This document shows positions 30,453-47,977 of a stretch of DNA of 64,000 nucleotides, one piece after another (position 1 is the first letter of the stretch; each line of letters opens with the position of its first letter). The stretch is from IMG/VR virus record IMGVR_UViG_3300029763_000196; one strand, written 5' to 3'. The notes beneath the pieces are model-generated. The model was not told the origin of the DNA. It worked only from the letters and a program-made list of their open reading frames with translations, and did no database searches. The stretch is from a virus. Made by a program: the position numbers and the translations under genes.

Positions 30453-30456
30453 AGTT

Positions 30457-30921: not shown

Positions 30922-30933
30922 CAAAGCAAAGAG

Positions 30934-31503: not shown

Positions 31504-31870
31504 CTTGCCGGACGGTGCTGGCTACACGGCCAAAGACGGTCAGGCATCGGTAAGCGTGCAAAGGCATGGCGATAACATCACGGTTACCGGCAAATGTGAC
31601 TCTATCGCCCGGCAATGCCTTTTCTACGAGCGTGAGGTGTTCCGACAGCGTAGCGAGGTGGATAGCTTGAAGCGGGTTATTTCCCGGATGGAGCAGACAG
31701 CCAGCCAGAGTGATGAATTCTATAATGAGGACAGCGATGCCGTTCAAAACATTAAGGAAAAGCCTCCTGCTACATGGTATAAATGGTTATTGGTGGGTTT
31801 CGTGGCCAGTCTATTGCTTACTTCCCCGCTAAAGAAGCTAAAGAATAGAGTATTAACTTTTATAAAATAA
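31223..31870 (+). CDS. lipoprotein (o-spanin-like) starting inside the preceding gene in another frame
   Basis: signal peptide plus lipobox LTGC; C-terminal hydrophobic segment WLLVGFVASLLL. Confidence 0.4.
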   Translation: MMRNLIRGATLALIIAVFILTGCATAKLTKNRQSHTLTEQTKSGTTTGVTGEQSDVTAQRTGELLQGQTITALTREGIPESEAKVDVPIQNLLNLPDGAGYTAKDGQASVSVQRHGDNITVTGKCDSIARQCLFYEREVFRQRSEVDSLKRVISRMEQTASQSDEFYNEDSDAVQNIKEKPPATWYKWLLVGFVASLLLTSPLKKLKNRVLTFIK

Positions 31871-31876
31871 AGAACA

Positions 31877-32614
31877 ATGTCAAAAGTTTATGTGAATGAC
31901 GGATATATGATGCTCCTTGATGCGATCTATTTCGATGGAAAGAAAATCGGCAATGTTTCAGAGGATGGCATCGATTGGGGTGGTGATGCGGCTGAGTATA
32001 TCAAGCTCTTTGCCGCACAGGTACGCAATGCCCCGGTAAAGAAAATCAAGAAAAAGGATGCCACCAACCTGTTAAAGTTCACCCTGATAGAACTTGTTCC
32101 CCAAAACTGTAAGGACGTGATGGGCGGTGAGGTGAACGGTACGAAATGGGAAGCTCCCTCGGAGTCCGTCTCGTTGGAGGGTTCGCTTAAGATCCTTTGT
32201 GGAACCGGTCAGACCGTGGAGGTGAAACGCATGACGCTGGACGGTGCAGTCCGTGGCAAGATTGGCGGTGATGATCCGCTGGGTATCGAGTGTGAGATGG
32301 AGATGATGAAACCGCTGGACGGTAGCTCTCCTTTCAGTTTTGATGATACGGCTCCGTTTATCTCCGTAACGCCCACCTCTTTGTCATTCGTCAAAGGTGG
32401 AGAGAAAAAGACGGTGGATATCGAAGCCTCCGGAGCGTTCTCGGTTGGAAAGGTTCCCGCCGGTTTCAGTCTTGAGGTTGTAAACGGCAGGATCACCATC
32501 ACGGCGGATGCCAATACCGGAGCTGTAAGGAACGGAACGGTAGAGTTTACCCTTGCAGCTGATAATACCCAAAAAGCCACTCTCACGTTGAGTCAGGCAG
32601 CCGGAAATGCGTAA
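31877..32614 (+). CDS. major tail protein with C-terminal Ig-like domain
   Basis: 245 aa, position before chaperones and tape measure; C-terminal beta-rich Ig-like region. Confidence 0.45.
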   Translation: MSKVYVNDGYMMLLDAIYFDGKKIGNVSEDGIDWGGDAAEYIKLFAAQVRNAPVKKIKKKDATNLLKFTLIELVPQNCKDVMGGEVNGTKWEAPSESVSLEGSLKILCGTGQTVEVKRMTLDGAVRGKIGGDDPLGIECEMEMMKPLDGSSPFSFDDTAPFISVTPTSLSFVKGGEKKTVDIEASGAFSVGKVPAGFSLEVVNGRITITADANTGAVRNGTVEFTLAADNTQKATLTLSQAAGNA

Positions 32615-32617
32615 CCC

Positions 32618-33097
32618 ATGAGAAAGAACGTGGAAATAGAGGCAGCGGAGGCTCTGCTTGACGTGGGGGTTTCCCTGCCTTTTTTGCAGTTTAAGATGCC
32701 ATTCAGAAAGAAACCGGTATCGATCAGGGTAACCATGAAACGTCCCTGCTTGGGGAGTCAGATCCGGATCGCAAGGCTATACCTGCAGTTGGGTATCACA
32801 TACGAGGAGATGGAGCAGTTCAACAAGCATGAGGAGATAGCGTTCCTTGCCATTCATGGCAAACGTGTTTCCAAGATGGTATCCCTGACCATCTGCCGTG
32901 GGGCGGTTTCCGGTCTATTGTTTTCCGGTATTGTCGCATGGCTCTTGAGATGGTTTGTTCCTGACAAGTACCTGCAGGGTGCTAACCAGCGTTTTGTCAC
33001 TTTGCTTGGTACAAAGTCTTTTATGCGTATTATCGAATCGGTTCAGATATCCAATCCACTGAAACCGAGAGAGAGCCAAAAAAGAAAGGGGAGTTAA
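32618..33097 (+). CDS. tail assembly chaperone (G-like)
   Basis: position immediately upstream of tape measure; A-rich stretch CCAAAAAAGAAAGG at its 3' end and downstream ORF in -1 frame. Confidence 0.35.
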   Translation: MRKNVEIEAAEALLDVGVSLPFLQFKMPFRKKPVSIRVTMKRPCLGSQIRIARLYLQLGITYEEMEQFNKHEEIAFLAIHGKRVSKMVSLTICRGAVSGLLFSGIVAWLLRWFVPDKYLQGANQRFVTLLGTKSFMRIIESVQISNPLKPRESQKRKGS

Positions 33098-33135
33098 GAA
33101 CGAAATATGTCGGATCCCATAGCCCCTTTGGTATA

Positions 33136-33336
33136 GTGTGGCAGATAGCTGCGGCCACCGGCTGGAGTGTAAAATACATTCTTTGGGGTGTCAATTACCA
33201 AACCCTCCGGATGATGCTTGCCGATGCGCCACATTACGAGAAAGAGAATGATAACAACCGAACCGGAAGCAAAGGCGGTAAAGGGAAACCTAAAAGCCTT
33301 TCCGGATTTTTCCAATCACGATTGAAAGAACAATGA
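33136..33336 (+). CDS. possible frameshift extension (T-like) of tail chaperone
   Basis: -1 frame relative to 32618..33097 stays open back into the upstream gene end. Confidence 0.25.
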   Translation: MWQIAAATGWSVKYILWGVNYQTLRMMLADAPHYEKENDNNRTGSKGGKGKPKSLSGFFQSRLKEQ

Positions 33337-36300
33337 AACCCGTTGAGATAGAATTCATAATGAGAGACAAGCTCTCTCCCGGCATTGACAAGGCGGGCAA
33401 GTCCGCCGAAACGCTGGGAGATAAGGCCGAGCAGGTGTCTAAAAACATCACAGACCGTATTGCCGCCCAAAAAGAGCAGATCAAGTATGTTGAATCCTGT
33501 CTCAAGGATTTAAAGAAGCAGTACGACAACCTCGCACCCGGAAAGGCGCAGCTGGAGATGCGTGCGGAGATAGATGCCTGTACCAAAGCCCTGCAGGAGG
33601 ACAAGAACATACTCTCCTCCCTTGAAGCGGAGCATGACAAGGCAGCCGTTTCCACCAAACGTCTTTCGATGCAGCTCCGGGAGATGCAGGATGCGATGGC
33701 TCGCCTGCGTTTGGAGGGCAAACAGAACACCAAAGAGTATGCGGATATGGCCGATAAAGCCGCCGTATTAGCCGATACGATCGGTGACCTGCGTACCCAA
33801 ACGAATATTCTCGCCAATGATGATGCAGCCTTGCAGGGAGTGATGAGCGGTGTGAATGGCTTGTCCGGTCTGTTCACGACCGCCACCGGTGTCATGGGGA
33901 TTTTCGCCTCGGAAAACGAGGATCTGATAAAGATACAAACCCGTGTGCAGAGCGTCATGGCCGTCACTATGGGGCTGCAGCAAGTCATGAATACCCTGAA
34001 CAAGGACTCCGCTTTCCGGCTGGTCACCGTTGTCAAGATGAAAAAGCTGCTGACGGCGGCCAATACAAAGTTGGCCGTGTCATTGGGCATCTCCAATGCG
34101 GCTGCCACCGCTTTGATGGCCACCCTTACGCTGGGGCTTTCCGCCGTTATAACGGGGCTTATCGTGCTTTGGGATAAATACAGCGATGCTCAGGAGGCAG
34201 CGGCGGAAAAGGCCAAAGAACGGGTTAAAATAGAAAGTGACGGGCGTTCCCAAATGATCAAAACCCGCTTTGAGATAGAGAATACCACGAAAAGCCTGAA
34301 AGACTTTACCGGTAGCAAGGAGCAGGAAAAGGCCAAAGTTGAGGAGTTGAACCGGAAATACGGCGAGAGCTTCGGATATTACAATACCGTTGCCGAGTGG
34401 TATGATGTGCTGATCCAAAAGAGTGATGACTATATCCAAATGCTTTTCCTGCAGGCGAAAGCCCAAAGTCTTGTTAACAAGGCCGTGGAAGCGGACGAAA
34501 CGGTGAACGAGGTAAAAGCCACTCCTGAATCCGATGTCGAGGGTTCGATGGGCTGGTTCTCTAAAATGGGGCTTTATATGGCTCAAAGCGAGTCTTACGG
34601 TCAGATTGACGCTCAGGCGTTGATAGAGAAACATAATAAGGAGGCCAAGGATGCAGCCGTAAAAGCCGCCGAGGAGCAGCGGGACGCTTATTTGGAGGAA
34701 GCAAAGAAGCTGCAGGAGGAATATGCCGAGCTGGGAAAGAAATCCGGTATCGGCGGGTTCGTGGCTCCTGAGAACAACAAGGATAAAGCGAAACCGGCCA
34801 ACAACCTTGCCGAGTTAGAACTGAAAGCCCGTCAAAAGATAGAGGATCAGCGTATCGCCATCCTGAAAGAGGGATATGACAAGGAGCGTGAGGAGGCATC
34901 GTTGAACTTTGAGCGGGAGAAAGAGCGTATCAACCGTGAGGAGCAACAGCGCATTGAACTTTATAACAAGCTGAAAGCCGCCGGGGAAAAAGTTACTCCT
35001 GAGCAGCTTGCCAATATCTCGGCACAGGCCGCAACCCAGCGTATACAGGCTGCACAGATATATGATGCCACCGTTGCAGAGATTGACGGTAAGGAGAAAA
35101 AGGATAACGAGGAGAAAAAGAAGAAACAGCAGGAAACCCTGCAGGAACTTCTGACTAAATATCGTGACTATGAGGCACAGCGTGCGGCTATAAAGAAACA
35201 AGGTGATAATGATATCGCTAAATTGGAGGCGGAGCGGACTGAGGCAAACTCGGCGGAGATTGACCGGGCGATAGCCGTCGCAAGAGAAAAGGTAAAACAA
35301 GGCATCCAATCAGTGAATGATGCGGAGGCTGACAGTATCTCAAAGGACAATGATTTCTTTAAAAAGCTCTTTGGGGATTATTCTTCCATGTCTTTCGACT
35401 CACTGCAGAAACTTATCTCACAGGCGAAGCAGTTGCGTGCATATTTATCCGGCAAGGGAGATGCGAAAGGTATCACGTTCATCTCTCCGGATCAACTGAA
35501 AAACATAGAGAAAAGTCCGGCAGAACTTGAAAAGCTGAAAAAAGCCCTTGATAAACTGCTCGATACCGGCAAGGGAGGCAATAATAAGTGGGAGAACATC
35601 TTCAAGACATTTGAGGAAGGCTTTGCCGAACTCAAAGGTGCGAAAGGAGCCAAAGAGGTGTCCGGCGCAATCGGTACGATCAGCGGGGCTGCGTCCGAGG
35701 CGGCTGGTGAACTTGCCAATATGTTTGACCAGATGGGTAACACCGAGGTTGCCGATGCCCTGAACGGTATGCAGCAGGTGATGGGGGCGGTTTCCAATAT
35801 CGGACAAGGTTTCGCCAAGGGTGGCTTGATCGGTGGCATCGGTGCGGCTATCGGTGAGGCCGCAAATTTCCTGACCTCGGCCTTTGCTGCGGAAGCCCGC
35901 CACAAGGAGGCTCTAAAAGAGATTGAAAAGGCTAAGCTCGATTTCCAGCGGCAATACAACCTCTTACTGCTGGAGCAGAACCTTTTGCTCGAAAAGGCGG
36001 AGAATATATTCGGGGAGCGTCAGGTAGCAAAGGCCGCCAATGCGATAGAGGTCTATCGTGATGCCCTCTCGCAATTCAAGGAAGAACTGGCCGGTGACGC
36101 TCCCACCATGAACTGGATAGAGCGCATGACGGGTGATTTTGCCGGAACCTACCGCAAACGGCTGGAGAACTATCAGAAAGGTTTTGGCGGGTTGAACGAT
36201 GCGCAGATCGTTACGGGACATAAAAAAACGGGATTGTTCGGCTGGGGAAAAGGAAAGGATGTTTATAGCGGGATCCTTGATGTTTACCCTGAACTGATAA

Positions 36301-37058
36301 AGGCCAACGGCGAGCTGGATACGGAGATGCTCCAAGTCATTCTCGATACCCGTAAGATGAGCGATGAAACCCGGAACTATCTTGAGAACCTGATCGACCT
36401 GAAAGATGCGATGGACGAGGCGGAACAGGCTTTGGAGGATTATCTGCAGGAAACGTTCGGGAGCCTCGGTCAGGGAATGCTCGACTCTATCACTTCCGCC
36501 ATCAAGGGAAGCGGCACGGCATTGGAAAATTTTGCGGATCAGGCCGCTTCCGTGCTGGAGAACCTCGGAGAGCAGATCGCATATTCCCTGTTCTTTGCCG
36601 ATAAGTTCGATGACCTGCAGAAAAAGTTAAAGGCGGTATATGGAAGCGGTAAAAGTGAGGAACAGATTGCGGGTGATGCCATGCACCTGATCGATAGCTT
36701 TTATGACAATATCGGGAATAACGTTGATGCGGCTCAATCGTGGATGGAAGCGTGGAAAGACAAGGCCGCCGCTATGGGGTATGATCTTTGGAAAAACGAT
36801 GAGGAAAAGACTACCACCCAAAGCGGGCGTGCCGGTGCTTTCCAAACCCTCACACAGGATCAGGGTACAAAGCTGGAGGGATTGATGACCTCCCTGCAGA
36901 TGCACGATGCCTCCATCGATGAGAACGTGGAGAATATATCAGAGGGCATAGGCGGAGCATTGGAAACGATCGATAAGATAAAGACGAACACCGATGCCTT
37001 GCCAAAGATATACGATGAGATAAGGGATATCAAACAAAACGGTTTAAAGATGAAATGA
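33333..37058 (+). CDS. tail tape measure protein
   Basis: 1241 aa, extended coiled-coil/alpha-helical composition, Gly-rich TM-like segments, position. Confidence 0.8.
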   Translation: MKPVEIEFIMRDKLSPGIDKAGKSAETLGDKAEQVSKNITDRIAAQKEQIKYVESCLKDLKKQYDNLAPGKAQLEMRAEIDACTKALQEDKNILSSLEAEHDKAAVSTKRLSMQLREMQDAMARLRLEGKQNTKEYADMADKAAVLADTIGDLRTQTNILANDDAALQGVMSGVNGLSGLFTTATGVMGIFASENEDLIKIQTRVQSVMAVTMGLQQVMNTLNKDSAFRLVTVVKMKKLLTAANTKLAVSLGISNAAATALMATLTLGLSAVITGLIVLWDKYSDAQEAAAEKAKERVKIESDGRSQMIKTRFEIENTTKSLKDFTGSKEQEKAKVEELNRKYGESFGYYNTVAEWYDVLIQKSDDYIQMLFLQAKAQSLVNKAVEADETVNEVKATPESDVEGSMGWFSKMGLYMAQSESYGQIDAQALIEKHNKEAKDAAVKAAEEQRDAYLEEAKKLQEEYAELGKKSGIGGFVAPENNKDKAKPANNLAELELKARQKIEDQRIAILKEGYDKEREEASLNFEREKERINREEQQRIELYNKLKAAGEKVTPEQLANISAQAATQRIQAAQIYDATVAEIDGKEKKDNEEKKKKQQETLQELLTKYRDYEAQRAAIKKQGDNDIAKLEAERTEANSAEIDRAIAVAREKVKQGIQSVNDAEADSISKDNDFFKKLFGDYSSMSFDSLQKLISQAKQLRAYLSGKGDAKGITFISPDQLKNIEKSPAELEKLKKALDKLLDTGKGGNNKWENIFKTFEEGFAELKGAKGAKEVSGAIGTISGAASEAAGELANMFDQMGNTEVADALNGMQQVMGAVSNIGQGFAKGGLIGGIGAAIGEAANFLTSAFAAEARHKEALKEIEKAKLDFQRQYNLLLLEQNLLLEKAENIFGERQVAKAANAIEVYRDALSQFKEELAGDAPTMNWIERMTGDFAGTYRKRLENYQKGFGGLNDAQIVTGHKKTGLFGWGKGKDVYSGILDVYPELIKANGELDTEMLQVILDTRKMSDETRNYLENLIDLKDAMDEAEQALEDYLQETFGSLGQGMLDSITSAIKGSGTALENFADQAASVLENLGEQIAYSLFFADKFDDLQKKLKAVYGSGKSEEQIAGDAMHLIDSFYDNIGNNVDAAQSWMEAWKDKAAAMGYDLWKNDEEKTTTQSGRAGAFQTLTQDQGTKLEGLMTSLQMHDASIDENVENISEGIGGALETIDKIKTNTDALPKIYDEIRDIKQNGLKMK

Positions 37059-37516
37059 CAATGGATATTTTAAAAGGCTTGTTACTGATAAACGGGGTTG
37101 ATGTCTTTGTGGATTATGGGGCATTCCTCGCAGAGGAGAAAGCGGGTGATACCAAGAATTACTCCGCCCTGCTGAAACCGCCATCGGCAAAGCCGCACAC
37201 GGCTGTGTCATTCCGGGAAAAAGACGGGGAGAAACTGCCTGATGCGCTTTTACCCGCATGGGAGGCTCGTGATGTCACCCTGCAATTTGCGATCATAGCG
37301 GCAGACCGGGCGCAATTCCTGTCCCGTTATTCGTCATTCCTGAAATTTCTCAAGGCCGGTAATAAGGGATGGTTGACCATCAACCCACCGGAGCTTGGCA
37401 GGAGTTACCGGATGTATTACAAGGATTGCACGGATTACACCCAGCTGACCGATTTCGGGGGTGAGGTCATCGCAAAATTCAGCGTGAAATTTCGGGAACC
37501 GGTTCCCTCGTTATAG
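37055..37516 (+). CDS. distal tail protein
   Basis: position between TMP and tail fibre; 153 aa. Confidence 0.35.
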   Translation: MTMDILKGLLLINGVDVFVDYGAFLAEEKAGDTKNYSALLKPPSAKPHTAVSFREKDGEKLPDALLPAWEARDVTLQFAIIAADRAQFLSRYSSFLKFLKAGNKGWLTINPPELGRSYRMYYKDCTDYTQLTDFGGEVIAKFSVKFREPVPSL

Positions 37517-37546
37517 TATTCAAACATTATTCAAACAGCGTTCAAA

Positions 37547-40500
37547 ATGGAGCTTAAAATATACAACCAGCAAGGGGTGTTCAAGACTGCGGTATCGCCG
37601 TCAGACTCCGACCGCCACGTAAAGGAAGTGATGAATGACAATATCCTGAATTTGTCGTTTACCCTTTACGAGTACGTGGAACTGGGCGTGAATGATTACG
37701 TGGATTTTGAGGGTGAACGCTTCACGCTGCTGGAGGATTACAAGCCGGAGCAGAAATCCACCGTTGAGTATGCCTACAGCTGCAAGTTCTACGGTATAGA
37801 GAGTGAGCTTAAAAAGGCCAAAGTCCTCAAGATGGTGGACGGTGACGATGAGCTTTCCTTTTCCTATGATGCCACGGCTGCCGAACACCTGCAGCTGATA
37901 TGTGACAATATAAACCGTATCAAGGGGACGAAAAATTGGGTTATCGGCGAGGTGGTGTCCTCCGCTAATGTAAACATAGAGTATGATAAGATATTTTGTT
38001 TCGATGCCCTTTCGGAAATAGCCAAGAATTTCAATACCGAATGGTGGATCGAGGGAACCACTATCAATCTGAGCCGTTGTGAACACGGCACTCCCGTATC
38101 TTTGGGGTACGGAAAGGGGCTGCTCAGGCTTTCCCGTGTGGAGAATGATACGGTTCCTTTCTTTACCCGGTTGTATCCTCTTGGCAGTACCCGTAATATC
38201 GTGGCCTCTGATTACGGCCACCGCCGCCTGCAGCTTCCGGGTGGTGTCCGTTACGTGGAAAGGAATATCCATCTCGGAATCGTGGAGCAGGCGGAGGAGG
38301 AGGCCTTTGCGTACATATTCCCGAAACGAATCGGTACTGTTACCTGTGTCAGGACGGAAGAGGCCACAGGTGAGGACGGCAATGCGTTCACTATATATTA
38401 TTTTACTGATGAGGGGTTGAATTTCGATCCGAACACGTATGAGATCGAGGGGCTTGTTAAACAGGTGTCGTTTCAAGGCGGGGAGTTGAACGGGCGTGAT
38501 TTTGAGGTGAATTTCAACTCCGAGACAAAGGAGTTCGAGATTATCACGCAATTCCCGTATGAGAACCAGCAGCTACCGGGCGGCCTGCTGATCCCGAAGC
38601 CGGGTGACGAGTATATCCTTTGGAACATACGGATGCCTAAAGAGTATTATCCGCTGGCGGAAAAAGAATTCGAGGAGGCCGTTCAGAAGCATATCGAGTC
38701 GATAAGCATTGATACGTCAGTCTATAAGGCTCCAACCGATTACATCTATTTGGATGAGAACCATATCGATTTGAAATTGGGGCGGCGTGTCCTTTTGGAG
38801 AATGAGATTTATTTCCCCACCGGCACTCACGAGAGCCGTGTGACCAAGATCTCCCGCCGGGTGAATAATACCACAGATATGGATATTGAATGCACGTATG
38901 CGGTTGATTACGGGCGTATCAATCAGATCGAGAGTAATATCGTGGATATTCAGGCAGCCTATAAGGAACAGCTGAATAAGGACGTGCTGACCGTATTGAA
39001 AAGCTGGGACAGTATTGATCCCACCGAGTATAACGTCCTTTCCGCCGTCCGGACAATACGCACGATCGCAAATTCCTTGAGCAAGCTGGAAAAAGAAACG
39101 GCAGACAAATACCTCAGAAAGGACATACCCGACACGGCGAAAGAGCTTGAAACCTTTTTGAAGGGGATAAAGGTTATCGGCGAGGCTCTTGTTGAAAGCC
39201 TTACGGTAGAGAAAGACTCCACTTTCAAAGGTCTGCTTTCCTCCGAGGTCTTTACTTCGGGTTTCCCCGGCGGAACCGGATGGGCATTGTTTTGGAAAGA
39301 GGTGCTTAATGCCGCAGGAGTAAAGGAAAAGAAAGCCGTCATGGAGCTGGACGAGATGACCGTCCGTGGGGTTATGCGAGTGTATGAATTTGTCATCTCA
39401 CAACTGATGGGTGAGAACGGAACCCGTCTGACAACTGACATGATGCGTGTCGATCACATCGATGCGGGCACAAAGACAATCTATCTCGATACGGAGAAAG
39501 GAGTCCTTTACAACCCTTTCCGTCCGGGTGATATCCTGATGGTTCAGCGTTTTTCCGTGGATGGTATCATCAAGCAGTACGAACTGCAGGTGGTCACTGC
39601 CAAAGTCGGTGATACCTCCAAAGGAGAGGAACGGCTCGATAGCATCACCTATAAGAATTTTGTAGGCGATGAGGGTAGTGTTGTTTTTCGTGACGTGCTT
39701 ACCCGTGTGGACTCCGCCACCAATTCAGACCGCAAAGGGGTTATCAAACAAACCAGCGTTGAGGAGGGCAGTCCGTATCTTGATGTCCTGTACGGGATGA
39801 AAACGGATCCTGACAACGCCGTGCGTCTCCGGCTTGGACGTCTGGCCGGTATTATTACCTATTGGTGGGGGCAGCTGCAGGGATATGGTCTGTATTCCAA
39901 CAACGCCTATCTGCTGGGTGATTTCCGTCTGCGTACCGGTGAGGATGTCCGGACGAAATTCGAGATAATGGAGGGTATGCTGCAAAGTGCCATGCAGAGC
40001 GTTGTGGGCACGATGACCGAGGAGGATAACTTTTTGAAAAACGCCAGCTTTCAGGATGACATGGCTTATTGGGAGCGTGAGAGTGATATGGCTTTATTTG
40101 ATATCGGAGGGCAGCTGCTTGATTTAGGCGTGAATTTCTATTCCGAGAAAAACAAGGTGGCCGATATTGACTCTTTCGATGGCCGTTTCATGCTCCGGAT
40201 CAAACGGAGTCACATTCGCCAGCTGAATGCGGATATCACCAAGCCGGAAGATGGCAGCGTCATATTTCTAACCTTGAAATATCATTGCGCCGAGGAGGGG
40301 ATCCTGACTGCCGGTTTCAGTGGATCCGCTCCCTATGTGGAGCAGGTTATTCCGGCTGGTGAGGGCTTTGATATACTGGAGATATCAGGAGTATGGAACG
40401 GAACCGGTGATTTTCTCCTGAAATTTACCGGTGACTTGTATATCGAGCAGCTAACCCTGACCAATCATCCGTTAGAGGATTATAAAAAAGAGGTCAGTAC

Positions 40501-41779
40501 CAAGTTCGAGCAGACCGCCGAGCATATTCTTGCCGTGGCCGAGGAGGTGAATAAGATAGACCATACCATCAAGACCGCCGGTTGGATCACCACGGCAGAC
40601 GGTAACAAGCTGTGGGCTACCATAACCGAGGTGGACAGTCTTGGCAATCGTGTCACCACGCACGAGAGCAGCTTTCACGTGACGGCGCAGCAGATCAATG
40701 CTATCGTGAGCCGTATCGATAAGGCGGAGGATGATTTGGGAATCATAGACCATACCATCAAGACCGCCGGTTGGATCACCACGGCAGACGGCAACAAGCT
40801 ATGGGCTACCATTGACCGGGTGGATGTCCTTGGCAATCGTGTCACCACGCACGAGAGCAGCTTTCACGTGACGGCACAACAAATCAATGCCATTGTTAGC
40901 CGGGTGGATACGATAGACGGAACCATCAGCAAGGCTGGGTGGATTACTACTGCAGACGGCAATAAGTTATGGGCGAGCAAGACGCTTGAGAATGGTGATA
41001 CGATTGTTTCCTATATCAACCAAGCGGCGGACTCCGTGACAATAAACGCCAAGCATATCAAGCTGGAGGGGCTTGTAACTGCGAATGGTAACGTACAATT
41101 CACCACGGATGGAAAGATAATCGCCAAGAACGGCGAGTTCAGCGGAACGGTTGTCGGTGTGTCGGGTTCCTTCAAATCCTTAAACTGCGTGAATAATAGC
41201 GGGGATATTGTCGGAGGCATCTCCTTTGGCAGTGATGGAAAGATGTGGTTTAACGGTGACCTGTATCATCAGGGCTATGACTATGACAAAAAACGTTCTT
41301 TCCGTTTCTATACCTCCGATGTTTGGTGTCGTGGTAATTTCGGGGCAAGGCAACGCAATACACTGGTGGTATATGGCAGTTATGGTTACTATTACGTAAA
41401 TGGTTTGGATACGGAAACCGGTAAGGTATATGTCTCCCTACCCTCGGCCACGTCATCCAAAAACGAGACCTATTATACCATTCCGTTATACGGAACCACC
41501 GGGGATGCTTCCGGTTTCCCTGTTGACTTGGTGATCATAAAGGTTTCAGGGACGTACCGGTATTTATTGAGCGGGATGAAAAGCCAGCGGGTAACGGTCA
41601 TGAATGCGAATAATCAAAATAGTGAAATTTATATCTACTCGAATGGCAATAAGGTAAAATGGCCGGGCGGTACTATCGCTGATTGTAGGAATATAGCGGA
41701 TTTCATGAGTCCTTCACCGGCTTCTAACTTATTAGGCAGAGGATGGATAGTGGGCGCAATGAATGATAATAACTGGTAA
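37547..41779 (+). CDS. tail fibre / host-specificity protein with internal 63-aa tandem repeats and receptor-binding C-terminus shared with prophage A fibre
   Basis: 1410 aa; repeats IDHTIKTAGWITTADGNKLWAT...; C-terminal ~250 aa homologous to 127..1302. Confidence 0.7.
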   Translation: MELKIYNQQGVFKTAVSPSDSDRHVKEVMNDNILNLSFTLYEYVELGVNDYVDFEGERFTLLEDYKPEQKSTVEYAYSCKFYGIESELKKAKVLKMVDGDDELSFSYDATAAEHLQLICDNINRIKGTKNWVIGEVVSSANVNIEYDKIFCFDALSEIAKNFNTEWWIEGTTINLSRCEHGTPVSLGYGKGLLRLSRVENDTVPFFTRLYPLGSTRNIVASDYGHRRLQLPGGVRYVERNIHLGIVEQAEEEAFAYIFPKRIGTVTCVRTEEATGEDGNAFTIYYFTDEGLNFDPNTYEIEGLVKQVSFQGGELNGRDFEVNFNSETKEFEIITQFPYENQQLPGGLLIPKPGDEYILWNIRMPKEYYPLAEKEFEEAVQKHIESISIDTSVYKAPTDYIYLDENHIDLKLGRRVLLENEIYFPTGTHESRVTKISRRVNNTTDMDIECTYAVDYGRINQIESNIVDIQAAYKEQLNKDVLTVLKSWDSIDPTEYNVLSAVRTIRTIANSLSKLEKETADKYLRKDIPDTAKELETFLKGIKVIGEALVESLTVEKDSTFKGLLSSEVFTSGFPGGTGWALFWKEVLNAAGVKEKKAVMELDEMTVRGVMRVYEFVISQLMGENGTRLTTDMMRVDHIDAGTKTIYLDTEKGVLYNPFRPGDILMVQRFSVDGIIKQYELQVVTAKVGDTSKGEERLDSITYKNFVGDEGSVVFRDVLTRVDSATNSDRKGVIKQTSVEEGSPYLDVLYGMKTDPDNAVRLRLGRLAGIITYWWGQLQGYGLYSNNAYLLGDFRLRTGEDVRTKFEIMEGMLQSAMQSVVGTMTEEDNFLKNASFQDDMAYWERESDMALFDIGGQLLDLGVNFYSEKNKVADIDSFDGRFMLRIKRSHIRQLNADITKPEDGSVIFLTLKYHCAEEGILTAGFSGSAPYVEQVIPAGEGFDILEISGVWNGTGDFLLKFTGDLYIEQLTLTNHPLEDYKKEVSTKFEQTAEHILAVAEEVNKIDHTIKTAGWITTADGNKLWATITEVDSLGNRVTTHESSFHVTAQQINAIVSRIDKAEDDLGIIDHTIKTAGWITTADGNKLWATIDRVDVLGNRVTTHESSFHVTAQQINAIVSRVDTIDGTISKAGWITTADGNKLWASKTLENGDTIVSYINQAADSVTINAKHIKLEGLVTANGNVQFTTDGKIIAKNGEFSGTVVGVSGSFKSLNCVNNSGDIVGGISFGSDGKMWFNGDLYHQGYDYDKKRSFRFYTSDVWCRGNFGARQRNTLVVYGSYGYYYVNGLDTETGKVYVSLPSATSSKNETYYTIPLYGTTGDASGFPVDLVIIKVSGTYRYLLSGMKSQRVTVMNANNQNSEIYIYSNGNKVKWPGGTIADCRNIADFMSPSPASNLLGRGWIVGAMNDNNW
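40556..40980 (+). repeat. 189-bp tandem repeat x ~2.3 inside the tail-fibre gene
   Basis: near-identical DNA blocks starting 40556 and 40745, partial third copy to ~40980. Confidence 0.8.
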
Positions 41780-42119
41780 TAATAAAAAGGAGGTATTTAT
41801 GAAAGTGAATTTGAATGTTCCCTTTATGAATTATAAGGGGTTGGTGATCACGAAAAAGGTAGAGGGTACGGATGTGGAACAGGAGCAGCTGATGAAAGAT
41901 GTCATTGCTCCGATCCTATTCAGTGGGGAGTGGAGAGATGAGAGGGTGAATGCTTTGAGTGGTGATGAAAAAATCCGTGCTTATAGCTTGAGCCTTAAGA
42001 TCTATCAATCCACCGGAGATATCGAAATCTCAGCGGAGGAGGCTCTAATGATAAAAGAAGCCGCATTGGTTTTGAGCCCCGGCGGTTACGCACAAATTGT
42101 CAAATTGATAGACGGATAA
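41763..42119 (+). CDS. fibre-associated small protein (homolog of 1293..1568)
   Basis: SD aaaggagg upstream; C-terminal similarity to the prophage A counterpart. Confidence 0.4.
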   Translation: MIITGNNKKEVFMKVNLNVPFMNYKGLVITKKVEGTDVEQEQLMKDVIAPILFSGEWRDERVNALSGDEKIRAYSLSLKIYQSTGDIEISAEEALMIKEAALVLSPGGYAQIVKLIDG

Positions 42120-42122
42120 GTT

Positions 42123-43022
42123 ATGGTACTGACAGAAGCTCAATTGCAGGAAATCGCTAAACGTGTGCGTGCGATCATCCGAGCCGAATCCAAAGGCGTG
42201 GGTGATCTACCGGTGGCCACCTCGTTGGATGGGCTTCTCTCGCTTCCGGCCTTGCGCTTTAACGGTGGCGTGCCGGAAGTAGTAGAGGCTCCTATCTCCA
42301 AATTGCAGGACGTGGCATTGGATGCGGTCAGTGGGGCAACGAAAGCCGCCAATGAAGCCGCAGTAAAAGCCAACACGTCTGCAGGTAATGCAGATAAGGC
42401 AACCACAGCGGCCAATAATGCTGCCAAAAGTGCCAATGATGCCGCCGGTACTGCCGGAGCAGCTACCGAAGCGGCAAAGAAAGCCACGGATGCGGCCAAC
42501 GGAGCCGCCTCCAATGCCACGAATGCCGCCACGAAAGCGTCCTCCGCAGCTGATACGGCGAATAAGGAGGCCAGCTCTGTAAATGCGGCCAAATCGGAAG
42601 CTCTTGCCGCTGCCGCCCGTGCGAGCAGTACGGCCACCACAGCAGAGGCCGAAATCGAGAAGATGAAGCAGCTGCAGGAATCCATATCGGGTGCAGCTTC
42701 ATTGGCTCCCACGAGGATGGAACTGACCTACACGAAACGCATCACCCAGCGTAATCCTTACGTTCAGCGTATCGTGGCCAAGATGTTCCCCTCGTACTCC
42801 CTGCAGAATGTTTTGTTCTTGGGTGATGACGTGGCCGTGAGCGTGGATCCTGCCGGTATTGTAACCCCGTTGAAGATCGGAACGAGCCGGATCCACGTGA
42901 TCCCGACACAGGCCACCCACTTGTACAAGACCATAAACGTGACGGTTCAGGCTCCGTCCGTCCGCCTTACCGGAGGCGGTAAAATCCGGGTTGACAGTAA
43001 AGGCAGAATACGTTTAACTTAA
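42123..43022 (+). CDS. tail fibre-like protein with Ala-rich helical repeats and C-terminal Ig-like (BIG2-type) domain
   Basis: low-complexity A/N/K/T helical region then beta-rich domain ...IGTSRIHVIPTQATHLYKTINVTVQAPS. Confidence 0.45.
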   Translation: MVLTEAQLQEIAKRVRAIIRAESKGVGDLPVATSLDGLLSLPALRFNGGVPEVVEAPISKLQDVALDAVSGATKAANEAAVKANTSAGNADKATTAANNAAKSANDAAGTAGAATEAAKKATDAANGAASNATNAATKASSAADTANKEASSVNAAKSEALAAAARASSTATTAEAEIEKMKQLQESISGAASLAPTRMELTYTKRITQRNPYVQRIVAKMFPSYSLQNVLFLGDDVAVSVDPAGIVTPLKIGTSRIHVIPTQATHLYKTINVTVQAPSVRLTGGGKIRVDSKGRIRLT

Positions 43023-43026
43023 AAAC

Positions 43027-44472
43027 TTGATAAATATGACAAGCGATCAGGAAACCCGTGTGTTAGCGATGCTTTCGGCTTTTGAAGCCGGAAAGAAGAT
43101 CAGCGAACTCGATACTGCCTCCGGCAGCGTGAGCGATATGCGCATCGAGGTGCTGGACACGGACGGAGAGTCCAAAGTTATGAATTTGTCCGAGGCGGTT
43201 ACCACCGCCGCAAACGCCGTTTGTGGACGTTATTGGAATGAATCGAATTCCACGTACCGGGCTGCCGGTTATCACGGCAGCCTCGATATGCTCCGCAAGC
43301 TGCCAGAGCTGTTGGGACTTGGTTGTTACCTCGTTCAGGATGACCGTACCCGGCGCAAGCTGGATCCCACGAACCACTACCGTTTCGAGGACGGCACACC
43401 GGCGAAGCTGGACGGCACGATGGGACAGTATATGTGGTGTTGGAATATTGGTTTTTATTTTGCCGAGTGGAAAGTGGGTAATTTGAAATATTATGCCGTT
43501 TCCCTTTCTCCCATCAAAGGCAAACAGTGCGTGTATATTCCCGCCGGTGGCCTTTCCGCCCTCGGTGGTGGCGTGCTGGACAGGACGAACAATATCCTTT
43601 GTTCGGTTGTGAGTGATGCCGCCCAATATCGTGGTGGAAACAATGATGCAAGCCGGGACGGGACTTACCGCACGCAGTTGGGGATGGTTGCAACCAATAT
43701 GCAGTACCGTAATTTTTCAACTTATGCCCGCAAGCGTGGCGAGGGTTGGGATGCCAACTGGTACGTGGCTCAGGCGGTGGTTGAAATTCTTTTCATGATC
43801 ATATTCGGAACCCGCAATATGCAGGAGGCCGTGATTGCTGAAAAGGATAGCAACGGTCTGTATCAGGGTGGCCTCGGAGCCGGAACCACTAATATGCCGA
43901 ATTGGGATCAGTGGGGTTATTACCCGGTTGTTCCGACCTCTGCGGGTATTGAGTTGGGTGACGGTTGCGGTGAAACCACGTTCAACGTGCTAAAGGAGGA
44001 CGGCTCGCTGCATTATGCGGCAAAGGTTCCGGTGTTCTTTGGCCTGAAACATCCTTTCGGCCATATATGGAAAATTGTCCGGGGGCTTATCGATAACGTG
44101 GGTGATGAGAAATCCGAGGTTTATGTTGCCCCGTCCCTTTATGCCGGTTATGATGACAATTCGATTTCCGGTCTAATCAAGGTTTGCGAGGTTCCGAGAA
44201 CCGGCGGTTATATCAAACAGAAAAGTTACTACTTGCTTTGCGCCATGCCGACCGAAATCGGAGCGACCGCCTCGACTTATTTCTGTGACTATTTTTGGGA
44301 GAATTCAGCATCATCCAAAGGGCTTCGTGTCCGCCTCTCCGGTGCTGACGCTAACTATGGCACGCATGCGGGGGCGTTTGCTGCGAATGCGAACAATGCG
44401 GCCTCGGATTCGTATGCGTATGTGTCCGCTCCCCTCTGCTTTTTCGATGCGGATCCGGTGATGTCGGCCTAA
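43027..44472 (+). CDS. DGR target protein (tail/receptor-binding protein with C-terminal C-type-lectin-like variable region)
   Basis: VR (44321..44435) lies at the 3' end of this gene; encoded segment SGADANYGTHAGAFAANANNAASDSYAYVSAPL. Confidence 0.8.
   Translation: MINMTSDQETRVLAMLSAFEAGKKISELDTASGSVSDMRIEVLDTDGESKVMNLSEAVTTAANAVCGRYWNESNSTYRAAGYHGSLDMLRKLPELLGLGCYLVQDDRTRRKLDPTNHYRFEDGTPAKLDGTMGQYMWCWNIGFYFAEWKVGNLKYYAVSLSPIKGKQCVYIPAGGLSALGGGVLDRTNNILCSVVSDAAQYRGGNNDASRDGTYRTQLGMVATNMQYRNFSTYARKRGEGWDANWYVAQAVVEILFMIIFGTRNMQEAVIAEKDSNGLYQGGLGAGTTNMPNWDQWGYYPVVPTSAGIELGDGCGETTFNVLKEDGSLHYAAKVPVFFGLKHPFGHIWKIVRGLIDNVGDEKSEVYVAPSLYAGYDDNSISGLIKVCEVPRTGGYIKQKSYYLLCAMPTEIGATASTYFCDYFWENSASSKGLRVRLSGADANYGTHAGAFAANANNAASDSYAYVSAPLCFFDADPVMSA
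44321..44435 (+). repeat. DGR variable repeat (VR)
   Basis: 115 bp matching TR at 44679..44793 with 10 differences, every one at a TR adenine. Confidence 0.85.
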
Positions 44473-44678
44473 AACGAAAACGGAAAGAGGAAAAGAACGT
44501 TCTTTGAAATTTTGTATTGAGAGTTTTTGGAAAGCTGTTCGGCGGGTTTCGGAACTCGCCGTTAGGCGAGTCGATTTTTGTGATTTTTTTGCCGGTTTTG
44601 GGAAAATGTAGTTAAAAGGCTTATCTTTGCATCGTTAAACCAAGTTTAACAGGTTGTTTTTACCCTTAGTGTGACGCA

Positions 44679-44793
44679 GGCTTCGTGTCCGCCTCTCCGG
44701 TGCTAACGCTAACAATGGCACGAATGCAGGGGCGTTTGCTACGAATACGAACAATGCAGCCTCGAATTCGAATGCGAATGTGTCCGCTCCCCT
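44679..44793 (+). repeat. DGR template repeat (TR)
   Basis: non-coding copy upstream of RT, rich in AAY codons in the VR reading frame (N A N N G T N ...); shared 3' GC-rich end GTGTCCGCTCCCCT. Confidence 0.85.
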
Positions 44794-44953
44794 ATACTTT
44801 GCAGTTAGGAAACGGTTAGATGGGGTGAAAGACCTTGCCACTTGGCAAAAGATGACGAACGCTCAAAAGGACGCTGGTAGGCCGGTAACGGTTCGAACGC
44901 TTCCGAGTAAGGCAAAGCAGACACTCAGACACTCAGAACCGCAGAAACAGACC

Positions 44954-46297
44954 ATGAAAAGGTATGGAAATTTGTTTGAACGAGTTGTCGAATATGGCAA
45001 TCTCGAACAGGCGTTTCACAACGCCGCCCGTCACAAAACTCGCCGAAGCGAAGTAATAGAGTACGGCTCCCATTTGGAGGCGAACCTATTACAGCTCCAG
45101 CGTGAACTTATCACCGGTACTTACCGCACCTCCGAATATAAGACTTTCATCATTTACGAACCCAAAGAGCGGAAGATCTTTAAACTGCCGTTCCGGGATC
45201 GTGTCGTTCATTGGGCGATAATGCAGGTTATTGAACCGATATGGCTCTCTAATTTCACCCATGATACATTCTCTTGCATACGTGGGCGTGGTATTCACCC
45301 TCTTTTATACAAGCTCCGCCGTGATTTGAAAGCGGATCCGGAGGGAACCCGGTACTGCCTGAAAATCGATGTGCGCAAATTCTATCCGAGTATAGACCAC
45401 GAGATCATGAAACAGGTAATCCGCCGAAAGCTGAAAGATGCCCGGCTGCTTGCTTTGCTTGACGGTATCGTGGACTCGGCAGAGAACGGAGTGCCTATCG
45501 GGAATTATTTATCCCAATTCTTTGCCAACCTTTATTTATCCGAACTGGATCATATCATGAAAGAAGAAATGGGCATCCGGTACTATTACCGCTTTGCCGA
45601 TGATATTGTCCTGCTGGATGGAAACAAGGAGAAGCTCCACGGAACCCTCGTGTTTATCAACCACTACCTGAATAATGAACGTGCTTTGAGTATAAAGCCG
45701 AATTATCAGGTTTTCCCGGTAGAGAGCAGGGATATTAATTACGTGGGATACGTGACGTTTCATGATTATTGCCTCGCCCGTAAGCAGAACAAGAAAAACC
45801 TCTGCCGTGAGGTGGCAAAATTACGCAAACGTGGGCTGAGTGATGAGGAGATCCGAATACAGGCATCCAGCCGGTTGGGGTTCATGCAGCATTGCAATAG
45901 CATTTATTTATTAAAAACTCTCAATATGAAAACATTCAGTGAAGTAACAAACAGCGGTGGTAATCTCACGGGAGATAAATACCACATTGATGACATTTTG
46001 AACAGGGAAATCCACCTGAAAGGTTTCGAGGTAAAAGAATCCAAGTATAAGGGTGAATGCCTGATCATTCAGTATGATATCTACGAGCAGGTAAAGGATA
46101 AAACCGGAGTTTTGCTCACTAACGAGGACGGCACTCCGAAAATGGATTGGGTGGAACATATCTCCTTTACCGGTTCGGAGGCTCTTATAAAACAGTTAAA
46201 GGATGTAGTATTGGATGAACCCTGTTCGGCAAAGATTATTAAACAACCAATCGGTGACCGGGGTAAATGCTTTTATAAGATAACCGATCCCGATTAA
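44954..46297 (+). CDS. DGR reverse transcriptase
   Basis: start chosen at MKRYGNLFERV (DGR RT-like N-terminus); RT motifs incl. YRFADDIVLL (YxDD), QG-like and thumb region; the track ORF from 44780 runs upstream through the TR. Confidence 0.88.
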   Translation: MKRYGNLFERVVEYGNLEQAFHNAARHKTRRSEVIEYGSHLEANLLQLQRELITGTYRTSEYKTFIIYEPKERKIFKLPFRDRVVHWAIMQVIEPIWLSNFTHDTFSCIRGRGIHPLLYKLRRDLKADPEGTRYCLKIDVRKFYPSIDHEIMKQVIRRKLKDARLLALLDGIVDSAENGVPIGNYLSQFFANLYLSELDHIMKEEMGIRYYYRFADDIVLLDGNKEKLHGTLVFINHYLNNERALSIKPNYQVFPVESRDINYVGYVTFHDYCLARKQNKKNLCREVAKLRKRGLSDEEIRIQASSRLGFMQHCNSIYLLKTLNMKTFSEVTNSGGNLTGDKYHIDDILNREIHLKGFEVKESKYKGECLIIQYDIYEQVKDKTGVLLTNEDGTPKMDWVEHISFTGSEALIKQLKDVVLDEPCSAKIIKQPIGDRGKCFYKITDPD

Positions 46298-46304
46298 AAT
46301 ATCG

Positions 46305-46721
46305 GTGATTATGTACAAAGGGATTTATGCAGAAAAAAAGACTTTTTCAAAGTTCGATAACGAACATTATTTGTGCTATCTGAACGAGCAGCGTGAGGAG
46401 TATTCTCCTGAGTCGGATGCCTGTTCGGGTGAGGTGACCGAACCGGTGTCCGCTCCTGTATTGGGATACGCCTATACAGGTGATATGGTGGATGGAGGTA
46501 CTCTGATTGAAGCAAAAGAGGCTACTTATGACGAATTCGTTTCCGGTCTGATCCGCACGAGGTACTCGGCAAGCAGAGTGGAGGCAATTCAATCAAATCG
46601 AATGATAGCTCTTGTCAATCCGGAGCATGAGCGTGCTGCCGAGTTTATTTCCGAGTGGGATGATTTTCAGTCCTACCGGGAACAATGCAAGGAACAAGCG
46701 GATGCGCTTATAAACGGATAA
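46305..46721 (+). CDS. hypothetical acidic protein
   Basis: 138-aa ORF directly after RT. Confidence 0.35.
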   Translation: MIMYKGIYAEKKTFSKFDNEHYLCYLNEQREEYSPESDACSGEVTEPVSAPVLGYAYTGDMVDGGTLIEAKEATYDEFVSGLIRTRYSASRVEAIQSNRMIALVNPEHERAAEFISEWDDFQSYREQCKEQADALING

Positions 46722-46795
46722 ATGCCTATCGGGGGCAGGCTATAAAAATGCCCCCGGCCTGTAAGTAGTTATCTCACCCACATACTTACACAAAG

Positions 46796-46850
46796 ATGCG
46801 CCATATCGCACAGCCGGGGGCAAAATTCCCTCTGCTGCGATATGGCGCAT
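46796..46850. other. perfect 15-bp inverted repeat ATGCGCCATATCGCA / TGCGATATGGCGCAT around a GC hairpin
   Basis: seen directly between 46305..46721 and the Dam gene. Confidence 0.5.
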
Positions 46851-46908
46851 TTGTATGTTATGTGAGTGAGATGTCGCAAAGATAGTAACATTTAAAGGAA
46901 TAACAGCA

Positions 46909-47751
46909 ATGAAAACACCTATTTCTTACTACGGAGGCAAGCAAACCCTCCTGAAACATATTCTGCCTCTGATCCCAAATCATAAACTTTATACAGAGGC
47001 TTTCTGCGGCGGTGCTGCAGTATTGTTTGCCAAGCGTCCGGCTGATGGCGAAGTTATAAACGATATCAGTATGGATATAACGAACTTTTATTGGATGGCT
47101 AAAGTCTATTATCGTGACCTGAAACAGGAGATTGAGAAGACTTTGCACAGCCGGGATATGCACGCCCATGCCGGACATATCCTGCAGTATCCTCAATTCT
47201 TCCAACCGGTGCAGCGGGCGTGGGCTGTTTGGGCGTTGTGTAAAATGTCCTTTGCCAGCATGATGGACGGTTCATTCGGTTATGACTTTGGTGGTGGAAT
47301 GCCGAAAAAACTGCGTAATGCAAAGGATGAGTTCACGGAATGGCTATGCGCCCGGCTTGATAACGTGACCATAGAGAACCGGGATGCGCTGGATGTCATC
47401 TCCACTTATGACTCGCCCGATACGTTTCATTTTGTGGATCCGCCGTATATAAACAGTGATTGCGGCCATTACGAGGGTACATTTGATGAGTATTGCATGG
47501 AGAAGCTCCTGCAGCTTTTGGAGCAGGTGAAAGGTAAGTTCATGCTGACAATGTTTCCCCTGCCAATGATAGAGGAATACGCAAACAAAAACGGATGGAT
47601 AATCCACCGGGTAGAAAGAACCATCAGCGCATCAAAGACGAGCCGAAGAAAGCAGGAGGAATGGATGGTATGCAATTATGAAGAACACCCGCAGCGAACT
47701 TTGTTTGATTACAAAGACAGCAGCGATGTTGATGCAACAGATGCCTCCTAA
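46909..47751 (+). CDS. DNA adenine methyltransferase (Dam/D12 class)
   Basis: N-terminal YYGGK, FCGGAAV (motif I) and DPPY (motif IV) of the alpha-class N6A MTases. Confidence 0.8.
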   Translation: MKTPISYYGGKQTLLKHILPLIPNHKLYTEAFCGGAAVLFAKRPADGEVINDISMDITNFYWMAKVYYRDLKQEIEKTLHSRDMHAHAGHILQYPQFFQPVQRAWAVWALCKMSFASMMDGSFGYDFGGGMPKKLRNAKDEFTEWLCARLDNVTIENRDALDVISTYDSPDTFHFVDPPYINSDCGHYEGTFDEYCMEKLLQLLEQVKGKFMLTMFPLPMIEEYANKNGWIIHRVERTISASKTSRRKQEEWMVCNYEEHPQRTLFDYKDSSDVDATDAS

Positions 47752-47830
47752 ATACTGTATAAAGATAGTCATTTCTAATGAATTGCACAAATATTGGAAC
47801 GTATTTTTTATGTGAAAATGCAATAATTTT

Positions 47831-47876
47831 AAAGGCTTTCAAACACCATTCAAATGACGTTTGAAAGCCTTTTTAT
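47831..47876 (+). terminator. rho-independent terminator after the Dam gene
   Basis: 14-bp perfect stem AAAGGCTTTCAAAC / GTTTGAAAGCCTTT followed by TTTT. Confidence 0.6.
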
Positions 47877-47900
47877 ATCGTGCGTGTGCGATAATTTTTT

Positions 47901-47969
47901 CACATTTCGTTTTATACCCTGATTATCGCATTTCGTTTTTTATACCGCTCGCATTTCGTTTTGCCGATT
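47901..47969. promoter_or_regulatory. right-end transposase-binding-site repeats (inverted relative to left end)
   Basis: CACATTTCGTTTT, ATCGCATTTCGTTTTTT, TCGCATTTCGTTTT = reverse complements of the left-end AAAACGAAATG(C/T)G sites. Confidence 0.5.
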
Positions 47970-47977
47970 ATAATAAG
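47970..47977. repeat. right copy of ATAATAAG flanking direct repeat
   Basis: identical to 12273..12280. Confidence 0.5.

Follow-up and report, generated by a model that had tools for sequence, protein, structure and literature searches.

A Mu-like Bacteroidales prophage carries an avd-less diversity-generating retroelement with adenine-confined variation in a predicted C-type-lectin-like tail protein

Does a direct repeat beside a reverse transcriptase gene in a phage genome mark a working diversity-generating retroelement (DGR), and to which kind does it belong? The question arises from IMG/VR record IMGVR_UViG_3300029763_000196, analysed here as a 64,000-nucleotide (nt) stretch of DNA (the window). 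An earlier note, made from the sequence alone, had described in it a complete DGR of a Mu-like phage: a variable repeat (VR) at the 3′ end of a tail-protein gene, a non-coding template repeat (TR) and a reverse transcriptase (RT), arranged as in the Bacteroides phage Hankyphage. Independent assemblies served as a proxy for reads. Our analysis leaves us highly confident that this is a functional DGR of a Bacteroidales phage, of the architecture target-VR / TR / RT and without an avd gene.

Repeat anatomy of the cassette

The target gene and the two repeats lie in the following order.

43036..44472, plus strand: DGR target gene, encoding a 478-aa tail protein with a predicted C-terminal TaqVP-like C-type-lectin (CLec) fold
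44321..44435, plus strand: VR, covering target residues 429-467 of 478
44421..44442, plus strand: invariant GC-rich 3′ end of the VR (TGTGTCCGCTCCCCTCTGCTTT), resembling an initiation of mutagenic homing (IMH) site
44679-44793, plus strand: TR, non-coding, with 25 mutable adenines, 154 nt upstream of the RT start
44779-44800, plus strand: IMH* at the TR 3′ end

VR and TR form a direct repeat of 115 nt with an offset of 358 nt, and a base-by-base comparison reproduced the described pattern of 10 mismatches, all at TR adenines (six A-to-G, three A-to-T and one A-to-C). With 25 adenines in 115 nt, the chance that 10 of 10 mismatches fall on A is P = 2.4e-7. The repeat extends to 122 nt (44321-44442 / 44679-44800), which adds two mismatches at 44436 and 44438, both again at TR adenines (12/12). 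At these two sites C and G, respectively, are present in all 11 distinct VRs that we gathered, and A and A (44794 and 44796) in every TR; this constancy makes them fixed IMH/IMH* differences and not products of mutagenesis, so that the mutagenised part ends at the VR border given in the earlier note. The GC-rich segment after the last variable adenine thus looks, by its sequence, like an IMH/IMH* pair.

Read in the VR frame, the TR holds ten AAY codons (Y, pyrimidine), in keeping with its reported richness in them, and three ACG codons. The 13 diversifiable VR codons are 438, 440, 441, 443, 444, 450-454, 458, 460 and 462; adenine mutation of each TR codon gives 15 or 4 amino acids and no stop, for a total of 3.7e13 possible proteins. 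The claim that no avd-like gene separates target and TR also stands: the 206 nt between the target stop and the TR hold no open reading frame (ORF) of at least 40 aa on the plus strand, and the seven neighbouring ORFs gave no Avd-type Pfam match, the flanking ORFs matching no Pfam family at all. Avd is present in about 74% of DGRs and is not universal.

Adenine-confined variation across independent copies

Copies of the locus were gathered with an exact 26-mer of the repeat (15 IMG/VR stretches), the exact RT protein (7 more) and an exact 60-mer of the TR (two genome records, Phocaeicola massiliensis DSM 17679 (L037) and an Alistipes-labelled metagenome-assembled genome (MAG; L036)). The TR is identical over 122 nt in every related locus that holds one, including loci whose RT gene has diverged to 93-95% identity. 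The VR, by contrast, occurs as 11 distinct sequences. Ten of these have 113 substitutions in 250 adenine cells versus 3 in 900 non-adenine cells (Fisher 4e-81), with each of the 25 TR adenines varying in some VR, and in the eleventh (L036) 9 of 9 differences are at adenines. Variation confined to A positions, the check that the earlier note had proposed to make on reads, is thus what the assemblies display.

The differences are also recent. Contigs L012 and L024 carry unlike VRs although the 300 nt leading up to them show 0 mismatches, and L024 combines an RT 99.9% identical to that of the window with a different VR; the same upstream sequence next to different VRs indicates recent retrohoming in the lineage. 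At the protein level, the 90%-identity cluster of the target has 18,023 distinct member sequences, and in the 13 cluster proteins compared every one of the 13 predicted codons is variable, with as many as 8 residues at a codon, against 0 of the 26 other VR residues. More divergent relatives have complete VR/TR pairs whose differences are likewise adenine-only. Several contigs (L011, L013, L014, L017, L019, L020 and L022) end at or within the VR or TR, a break pattern expected from a within-sample hypervariable repeat and an indirect hint of population heterogeneity.

Reverse transcriptase and spacer RNA

Downstream of the TR lie an RNA element and the RT.

44831..44924, plus strand: RT-17 RNA (Rfam RF03020) in the TR-RT spacer; 62.7 bits against a gathering threshold of 40.4, E 5e-12, model positions 1-95 of 95
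44954..46297, plus strand: DGR RT, 447 aa, with R73, IGNYLSQ (residues 182-188) and FADD (residues 214-217)
45926..46294, plus strand: C-terminal extension of the RT, residues 325-447, about 123 aa, not present in the RT of PDB 8ub7 (328 aa)

The RT assignment is borne out by Pfam RVT_1 (1.3e-14) and by PHROG 1423, an RT family (1e-114); the YxDD motif attributed to it is not found, the catalytic box being FADD, as opposed to YMDD in 8ub7. The best PDB match is 8ub7_A (328 aa; E 1.8e-46 over residues 2-312), with group II intron RTs at 4e-17 and group II intron and retron RTs at about 1e-17. We take 8ub7 to be bRT, the RT of phage BPP-1, from its length of 328 aa and the fit of its N-terminal sequence. 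DGR RTs carry the signature [I/V/L]GxxxSQ in place of QGxxxSP, and bRT residues Arg74 and Ile181 promote adenine misincorporation (PMC7826257). The window RT has the signature as IGNYLSQ, together with equivalents of both residues, so that the DGR-type motif set sought by the earlier note is present, and with target-VR, TR and such an RT the element is complete, as claimed.

The C-terminal extension is rare, with 41 representative clusters among 1.84 billion proteins; it is kept in at least 45 of 52 related loci and is fused to the RT wherever upstream sequence is present. Short stand-alone matches proved to be truncated contigs with the frame open upstream, and a separate existence of the domain as a protein of its own (a Rosetta-stone relationship) was rejected.

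RT-17 lies between TR and RT in further loci (L010, L016, L028, L030, L055, L057, L060 and L087); in L027, L062, L067 and L069 it precedes the RT. VR/TR pairs were mapped in the RT-17 relatives L028, L030, L055, L057, L060 and L087. Among the DGRs examined, all that have RT-17 hold it in the TR-RT spacer. By analogy it is presumed to correspond to the 'Sp' priming region of BPP-1. The global fold of the TR-spacer RNA was no better than that of shuffled sequence. RT-10 occupies the TR-RT spacer of BPP-1, and service of other RT motifs to other DGRs was a speculation of Weinberg et al. (PMC5737381). The corresponding spacer of Hankyphage (L001, 38551-38700) strongly matches another Rfam orphan, RT-3 (RF03068; 146.6 bits), so that at least three 'RT' motifs (RT-3, RT-10 and RT-17) hold the same position in different DGR lineages.

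A variable tail protein with a TaqVP-like fold

The target gene was found where the earlier note had placed it (43027..44472), with the exception of its start: ATG 43036, as called on metagenome contigs, is the most likely start codon, not TTG 43027. The protein matches PHROG 5302 ('tail protein') and has more than 1,700 homologues in Bacteroidales metagenomes; searches for a Pfam or NCBIfam family, and of its profile against PDB sequences, returned no match. Its predicted structure is best matched by TaqVP of Thermus aquaticus (PDB 5VF4), with a score of 22.4 over 249 aligned residues at 17% sequence identity; other structural matches are FGE-like proteins and TvpA (about 11.5), Mtd (9.5), and AvpA and canonical C-type lectins (about 5). 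The CLec fold for which the earlier note had suggested a check is therefore predicted by a confident model, with the variable residues displayed in the C-terminal part. Within the tail module the target gene comes last, preceded by the genes for the tape measure, hub and large tail proteins. In crAss-like phages the homologues bear the annotation of tail or tail-collar fibre proteins, and otherwise 'tail protein' only. The element most likely serves to vary the receptor-binding specificity of the phage; in keeping with this, near-identical phages are found in Phocaeicola massiliensis, in Bacteroides fragilis and in an Alistipes-labelled MAG.

Some features of the target and its surroundings stand apart from this. 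The 299-aa ORF just upstream (42123-43022) has an Ala/Asn/Thr-rich region with degenerate 21-33-nt repeats at 42336-42550 (families D1 and D3), a weak match to a tail-fibre PHROG, and a C-terminal half that matches phrog_20680; it may be a fibre shaft or an adaptor for the variable protein. Neither it nor the 118-aa neighbouring ORF matches a Pfam or NCBIfam family. Some members of the target's 90% cluster, among them P0262, P0267 (967 aa) and P0270 (525 aa), have about twice the normal length, perhaps because the gene was fused to its neighbour or the gene call read through into it. Within the phage collection, the target homologue of highest identity (42%) is in a 36.6-kb phage scaffold (MT835559.1, L002), where tblastn found no RT or orfX homologue in the roughly 5.4 kb downstream; the DGR may have been lost there, or the homologue may be a target paralogue that was never diversified.

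Proposed mechanism and alternative explanations

Two candidate signals lie between target gene and TR.

44554..44581 (hairpin 44554-44571), plus strand: terminator-like hairpin and T-run downstream of the target, a consensus match of which one was found versus 0.9 expected in shuffles
44597..44629, plus strand: candidate Bacteroides-type promoter, TTTG-N21-TAnnTTTG, a pattern match ending about 50 nt upstream of the TR

The pattern at 44597-44629 fits the Bacteroides promoter consensus and may act as a promoter; L055, L060 and Hankyphage have similar matches ahead of their TRs, and a sigma-70 promoter scan gave no match. A transcript starting between the target gene and the TR would carry the TR, the RT-17 spacer and the coding region of the RT (and of the small downstream gene orfX). 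The RT would copy the TR into cDNA with misincorporation opposite template adenines, a step that we infer because IGNYLSQ and the equivalents of bRT Arg74 and Ile181 are conserved. The cDNA would then replace the VR at the 3′ end of the gene for the 478-aa tail protein, with the IMH/IMH* difference setting the direction, so that the ten AAY and three ACG codons could be rewritten into up to 3.7e13 variants, all within the putative C-terminal ligand-binding part of the TaqVP-like fold.

The existence of a direct repeat would, by itself, also be compatible with an ordinary tandem-type duplication that diverged by normal mutation without any retroelement, and nothing more speaks for this. All differences sit on the adenines of one copy (P about 2e-7 within the window), the adenine pattern is seen again, each time with other substitutions, in 11 independent VRs, the second copy being invariant throughout, and a DGR-type RT is adjacent; adenine-confined variation across the VRs and the 13 cluster proteins refutes such a duplication, and we assign it a vanishingly small probability. 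A number of observations do weigh against a functional DGR that varies receptor binding. The window and seven contigs from different samples (L003-L009), 8 contigs in all, have exactly the same VR, as would be expected if the cassette were intact but silent or defective in this prophage and its VR a frozen record of past retrohoming. The shared VR implies either that diversification is not continuous in lysogens but episodic or that the samples carry one strain, and an episodic course agrees with the activity of the Hankyphage DGR, which is strongly tied to derepression of the lytic cycle (PMC12135933). On the other side, RT, TR, IMH, RT-17 and orfX are all uninterrupted here, and the different VR of L024, beside an otherwise all but identical RT and upstream sequence, indicates very recent retrohoming; a silent cassette is on balance unlikely.

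The observed spectrum is uneven, a further point on the same side: A-to-G makes up 61% of adenine substitutions, and at TR position 50 (44728; VR 44370), where the TR has the third-position adenine of a GCA codon, each of the 11 distinct VRs has G, which suggests that selection or bias shapes what is seen. TR position 80 (44758) is G in most distinct VRs. The excess of G at positions 50 and 80 may reflect RT bias, selection or an old fixed difference. Nor was a hairpin or cruciform found downstream of the VR, the fold of 44415-44530 being no better than shuffled sequence (z 0.11). Finally, the proposed tail location and receptor-binding role draw on gene order and on PHROG and database annotation, and the diversified protein might instead be an accessory adhesin for mucus, glycans or another surface, in which case the DGR would tune something besides host range. 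Adherence to mucus was proposed for the CLec protein of Hankyphage by Benler et al. (PMC6199706), and target homologues have no functional annotation beyond 'tail protein'. The position of the gene at the end of the tail module, the tail and tail-collar fibre annotation of its crAss-like homologues and the presence of the phage lineage in several genera argue for receptor binding. In the founding DGR example, Mtd of BPP-1, the same fold binds the host receptor. We regard the adhesin as rather improbable, less so than a silent cassette, and variation of receptor-binding specificity as the most likely role.

A small gene linked to the RT

The cassette is followed by a gene that we call orfX.

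46311..46721, plus strand: orfX, an acidic 136-aa protein (isoelectric point (pI) 4.5), starting 13 nt after the RT stop

About 96 relatives of orfX were found. The RT lies directly upstream in 52 of 52 IMG/VR loci encoding one, in some of which RT identity falls to 27-34% while orfX identity is 44-51%, and orfX follows the RT in 4 further metagenome or MAG contexts (within L027-L032). The loci of these relatives keep VR/TR pairs with adenine-only differences. No Pfam or NCBIfam family, PDB-sequence match (by profile) or relative among PDB folds was found for orfX. Its AlphaFold2 model, with a predicted local distance difference test score of 87.9, has six strands and three helices and so, as modelled, does not form a bundle of the Avd type. 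Among viral proteins, a search by structure returned a 111-aa protein of the crAss-like phage cr55_1, tied to the post-RT ORF there by length match alone.

Other relationships were considered and rejected. The post-RT ORF of Hankyphage, labelled 'Avd' in PV107405, is unrelated to orfX, and on comparison so are the post-RT ORF of crAssphage LMMB and the C-terminal domain of the RT. An orfX homologue was not detected after the RT in Hankyphage or in LMMB (profile comparison), nor in cr52_1 (tblastn); its absence from the first two means that orfX is not universal in avd-less DGRs. The annotated post-RT gene of cr52_1 (L095, 2916-3536) has two in-frame stops under translation table 11; stop-codon recoding is known in some crAss-like phages, and these stops fit it.

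We consider orfX a candidate for a genuine component of the cassette, acting either as an accessory factor of the RT or as a chaperone of the target protein. Whether it is instead unconnected to retrohoming, serving the variable tail protein as chaperone or assembly factor or being a hitch-hiking neighbour, strikes us as an even call. Small acidic proteins beside fibre genes are often assembly chaperones, which counts towards such a role. The acidity of orfX is also unlike Avd, whose mean pI is 9.5 (PMC5758913), and Hankyphage, LMMB and the nearest crAss-like RT relatives have no orfX behind their RT. What this leaves unexplained is that orfX, where it occurs, is always joined to the 3′ end of the RT, with the 13-nt gap here and with homologues whose frames overlap the RT stop in the crAss-like phages cr10_1 and cr50_1 (hhalign probability 98% for the latter). 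The linkage holds despite different genes downstream, which include a tape measure, lysis genes, a methyltransferase and crAss genes. In cr50_1, moreover, VR and TR lie upstream of the RT, and the orfX homologue and then a second target-like protein follow it. More tentatively, orfX could be an unrecognised accessory component of an avd-less DGR sub-lineage that some crAss-like phages share with Mu-like Bacteroidales prophages. It would be co-translated with the RT and, in the place of Avd, be required for cDNA synthesis on the TR/RT-17 RNA or for cDNA integration. The C-terminal extension of the RT, of about 123 aa, may contribute alongside it.

A distant relative of Hankyphage

The DGR lies at the right end of a prophage.

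12280..47971, plus strand: Mu-like, Hankyphage-related prophage, 35,692 bp
14709-16781: MuA (phrog_310, 5e-92; 54% identity to MuA of Hankyphage p00)
16793-17674: MuB

The prophage is bordered by a 5-bp direct repeat, AATAA (12275-12279 and 47972-47976), representing a target duplication; in other contigs that hold the phage the similarity breaks off precisely at these borders, and the flanks differ between contigs. Repeated CGAAATGCG-type motifs occur at both ends in inverted orientation. MuA, MuB, the 5-bp duplication and the matching gene order agree with the description of the phage as Mu-like.

The likeness to Hankyphage (p00, BK010646) holds for the backbone and fails for the cassette. 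Both are Mu-like transposable Bacteroidales prophages with a 5-bp target duplication, and the gene order from tape measure to N6-adenine methyltransferase is that of Hankyphage, running over hub, large tail protein and further genes to target-VR, TR, RT, a small ORF and, after others, the methyltransferase. VR/TR length (about 116 nt), the absence of a canonical Avd and, in part, the alignable C-terminal extension of the RT are also alike, and the Hankyphage DGR is experimentally active (PMC12135933). The RTs, however, are 32% identical and the MuA proteins 54%; the target has 478 aa here versus about 2245 aa in the CotH-like protein of Hankyphage, with faint collinear similarity to its last 480 or so residues; the spacer RNA is RT-17 versus RT-3; the genomes measure 35.7 kb versus 42.8 kb; and the post-RT ORFs are unrelated. 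Benler et al. defined Hankyphage membership by more than 95% nucleotide identity to p00. This phage falls short of that level, with protein identities of 32-54%, and megablast of the DGR cassette against the phage collection found no match, on which ground identity of the element with Hankyphage at the DNA level was rejected. The prophage is a distant, syntenic relative of Hankyphage, and its cassette is of a different subtype.

Comparison with other DGRs

The nearest RTs in the phage collection (about 51% identity) are instead those of crAss-like phages, whose target homologues are 25-35% identical. The DGRs of LMMB, cr52_1, cr6_1, cr10_1, cr50_1 and cr55_1 have the same order of target gene (TG), repeats and RT without avd, TG-VR(IMH)-TR(IMH*)-RT (PMC7290462), and the crAssphage LMMB target, at about 480 aa, is similar in size to the 478 aa here. 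The Crassvirales backbone differs, being unrelated to that of a Mu-like temperate phage, and for most crAss RTs the alignment to this RT is limited to its residues 1-335, so that they appear to be without the C-terminal extension.

With the BPP-1 system (Mtd/Avd/TR/bRT) the cassette shares adenine-specific mutagenesis, a VR at the C-terminus of a CLec tail protein, IMH and IMH*, and RT homology over residues 2-312 that includes conserved equivalents of Arg74 and Ile181. It differs in the lack of Avd, in the order target-TR-RT with nothing between VR and TR, in the spacer RNA (RT-17 versus RT-10 in BPP-1; PMC5737381), in the VR-proximal hairpin, for which none was found here, and in the RT, with its extra domain of about 123 aa and FADD in place of the YMDD of 8ub7. 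From TaqVP, equivalent to the 'domain group 2' variable proteins of Bacteroides prophages, the target differs by an additional N-terminal region of about 200 aa, and sequence identity between them is 17%.

The element fits three published descriptions. Lineage 3 DGRs of Wu et al. (2018) occur in Bacteroides and relatives, are ordered target-TR-RT, have CLec3 VRs and 'notably lack avd' (PMC5758913). Tikunov and colleagues described in crAssphage LMMB a target-TR-RT architecture without avd and a 486-aa tail-collar fibre target, and placed its RT in lineage 3 (PMC7290462). Macadangdang et al. (2024) characterized the 'domain group 2' targets of Bacteroides DGRs as prophage-encoded, TaqVP-like, putative tail-fibre receptor-binding proteins. 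The window cassette has the order target-TR-RT and no accessory gene homologous to avd, HRDC, MSL or CH1, which corresponds to lineage 3, architecture A1 and CLec3, and its RT is 41.7% identical to that of LMMB; the assignment to lineage 3, made by architecture, is putative. The class, avd-less lineage 3 with TaqVP-like prophage targets, is one already described.

Hosts and flanking genes

Besides the two genome records with exact matches to the TR 60-mer, one member of the target's 90% cluster (P0258) comes from Bacteroides fragilis, so that near-identical copies of phage or target are found in genomes assigned to three genera and two families (L036, L037 and P0258). This spread reflects either a broad host range, as for Hankyphage, or a mis-binned MAG. 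The phage lineage is a frequent one in human gut metagenomes, and 329 blocks of the collection contain its MuA in their index. Phocaeicola massiliensis is not mentioned in the supplements of Benler 2018.

Outside the prophage, the flanks of the window (1-12279 and 47977-64000) resemble another phage or mobile element that hosts the Mu-like prophage, and they recur in L004 and L035. They hold the following genes.

6735-8006: RtcB
10504-11172: N6/N4 methylase
11703-12155: Tad2-like anti-Thoeris protein
48004-48786: PAPS reductase
51971-53077: C5 cytosine methylase
58632-59540: RecT
59537-60505: PDDEXK protein
62890-63660: S24 repressor-like protein

Discussion

As a DGR the element adds little, since Wu 2018, Benler 2018, Tikunov 2020 and Macadangdang 2024 have catalogued its class. 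What it adds is modest and testable: cassettes exchanged as modules between phages of the Mu-like and crAss-like kinds, RT-17 assigned to DGRs, and an RT-linked orfX. The cassette subtype, target-TR-RT(-orfX), moves as a module between unrelated backbones, as it is found in Crassvirales, in a Hankyphage-like Mu-type prophage and, at differing places in the genome, in further Bacteroidales prophages. RT-17, until now an orphan motif of Rfam, is tied to the TR-RT spacer of working DGRs, whereas Weinberg et al. had only speculated beyond RT-10. At least one cultured strain, Phocaeicola massiliensis DSM 17679, carries the phage, which makes experiments feasible. Linked to the RT in every examined locus that carries it, orfX is a testable candidate for the accessory function that avd-less DGRs are missing. 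Its proposed role, if true, would bear on how DGRs of lineage 3 function without Avd, a question that Wu et al. (2018) left open.

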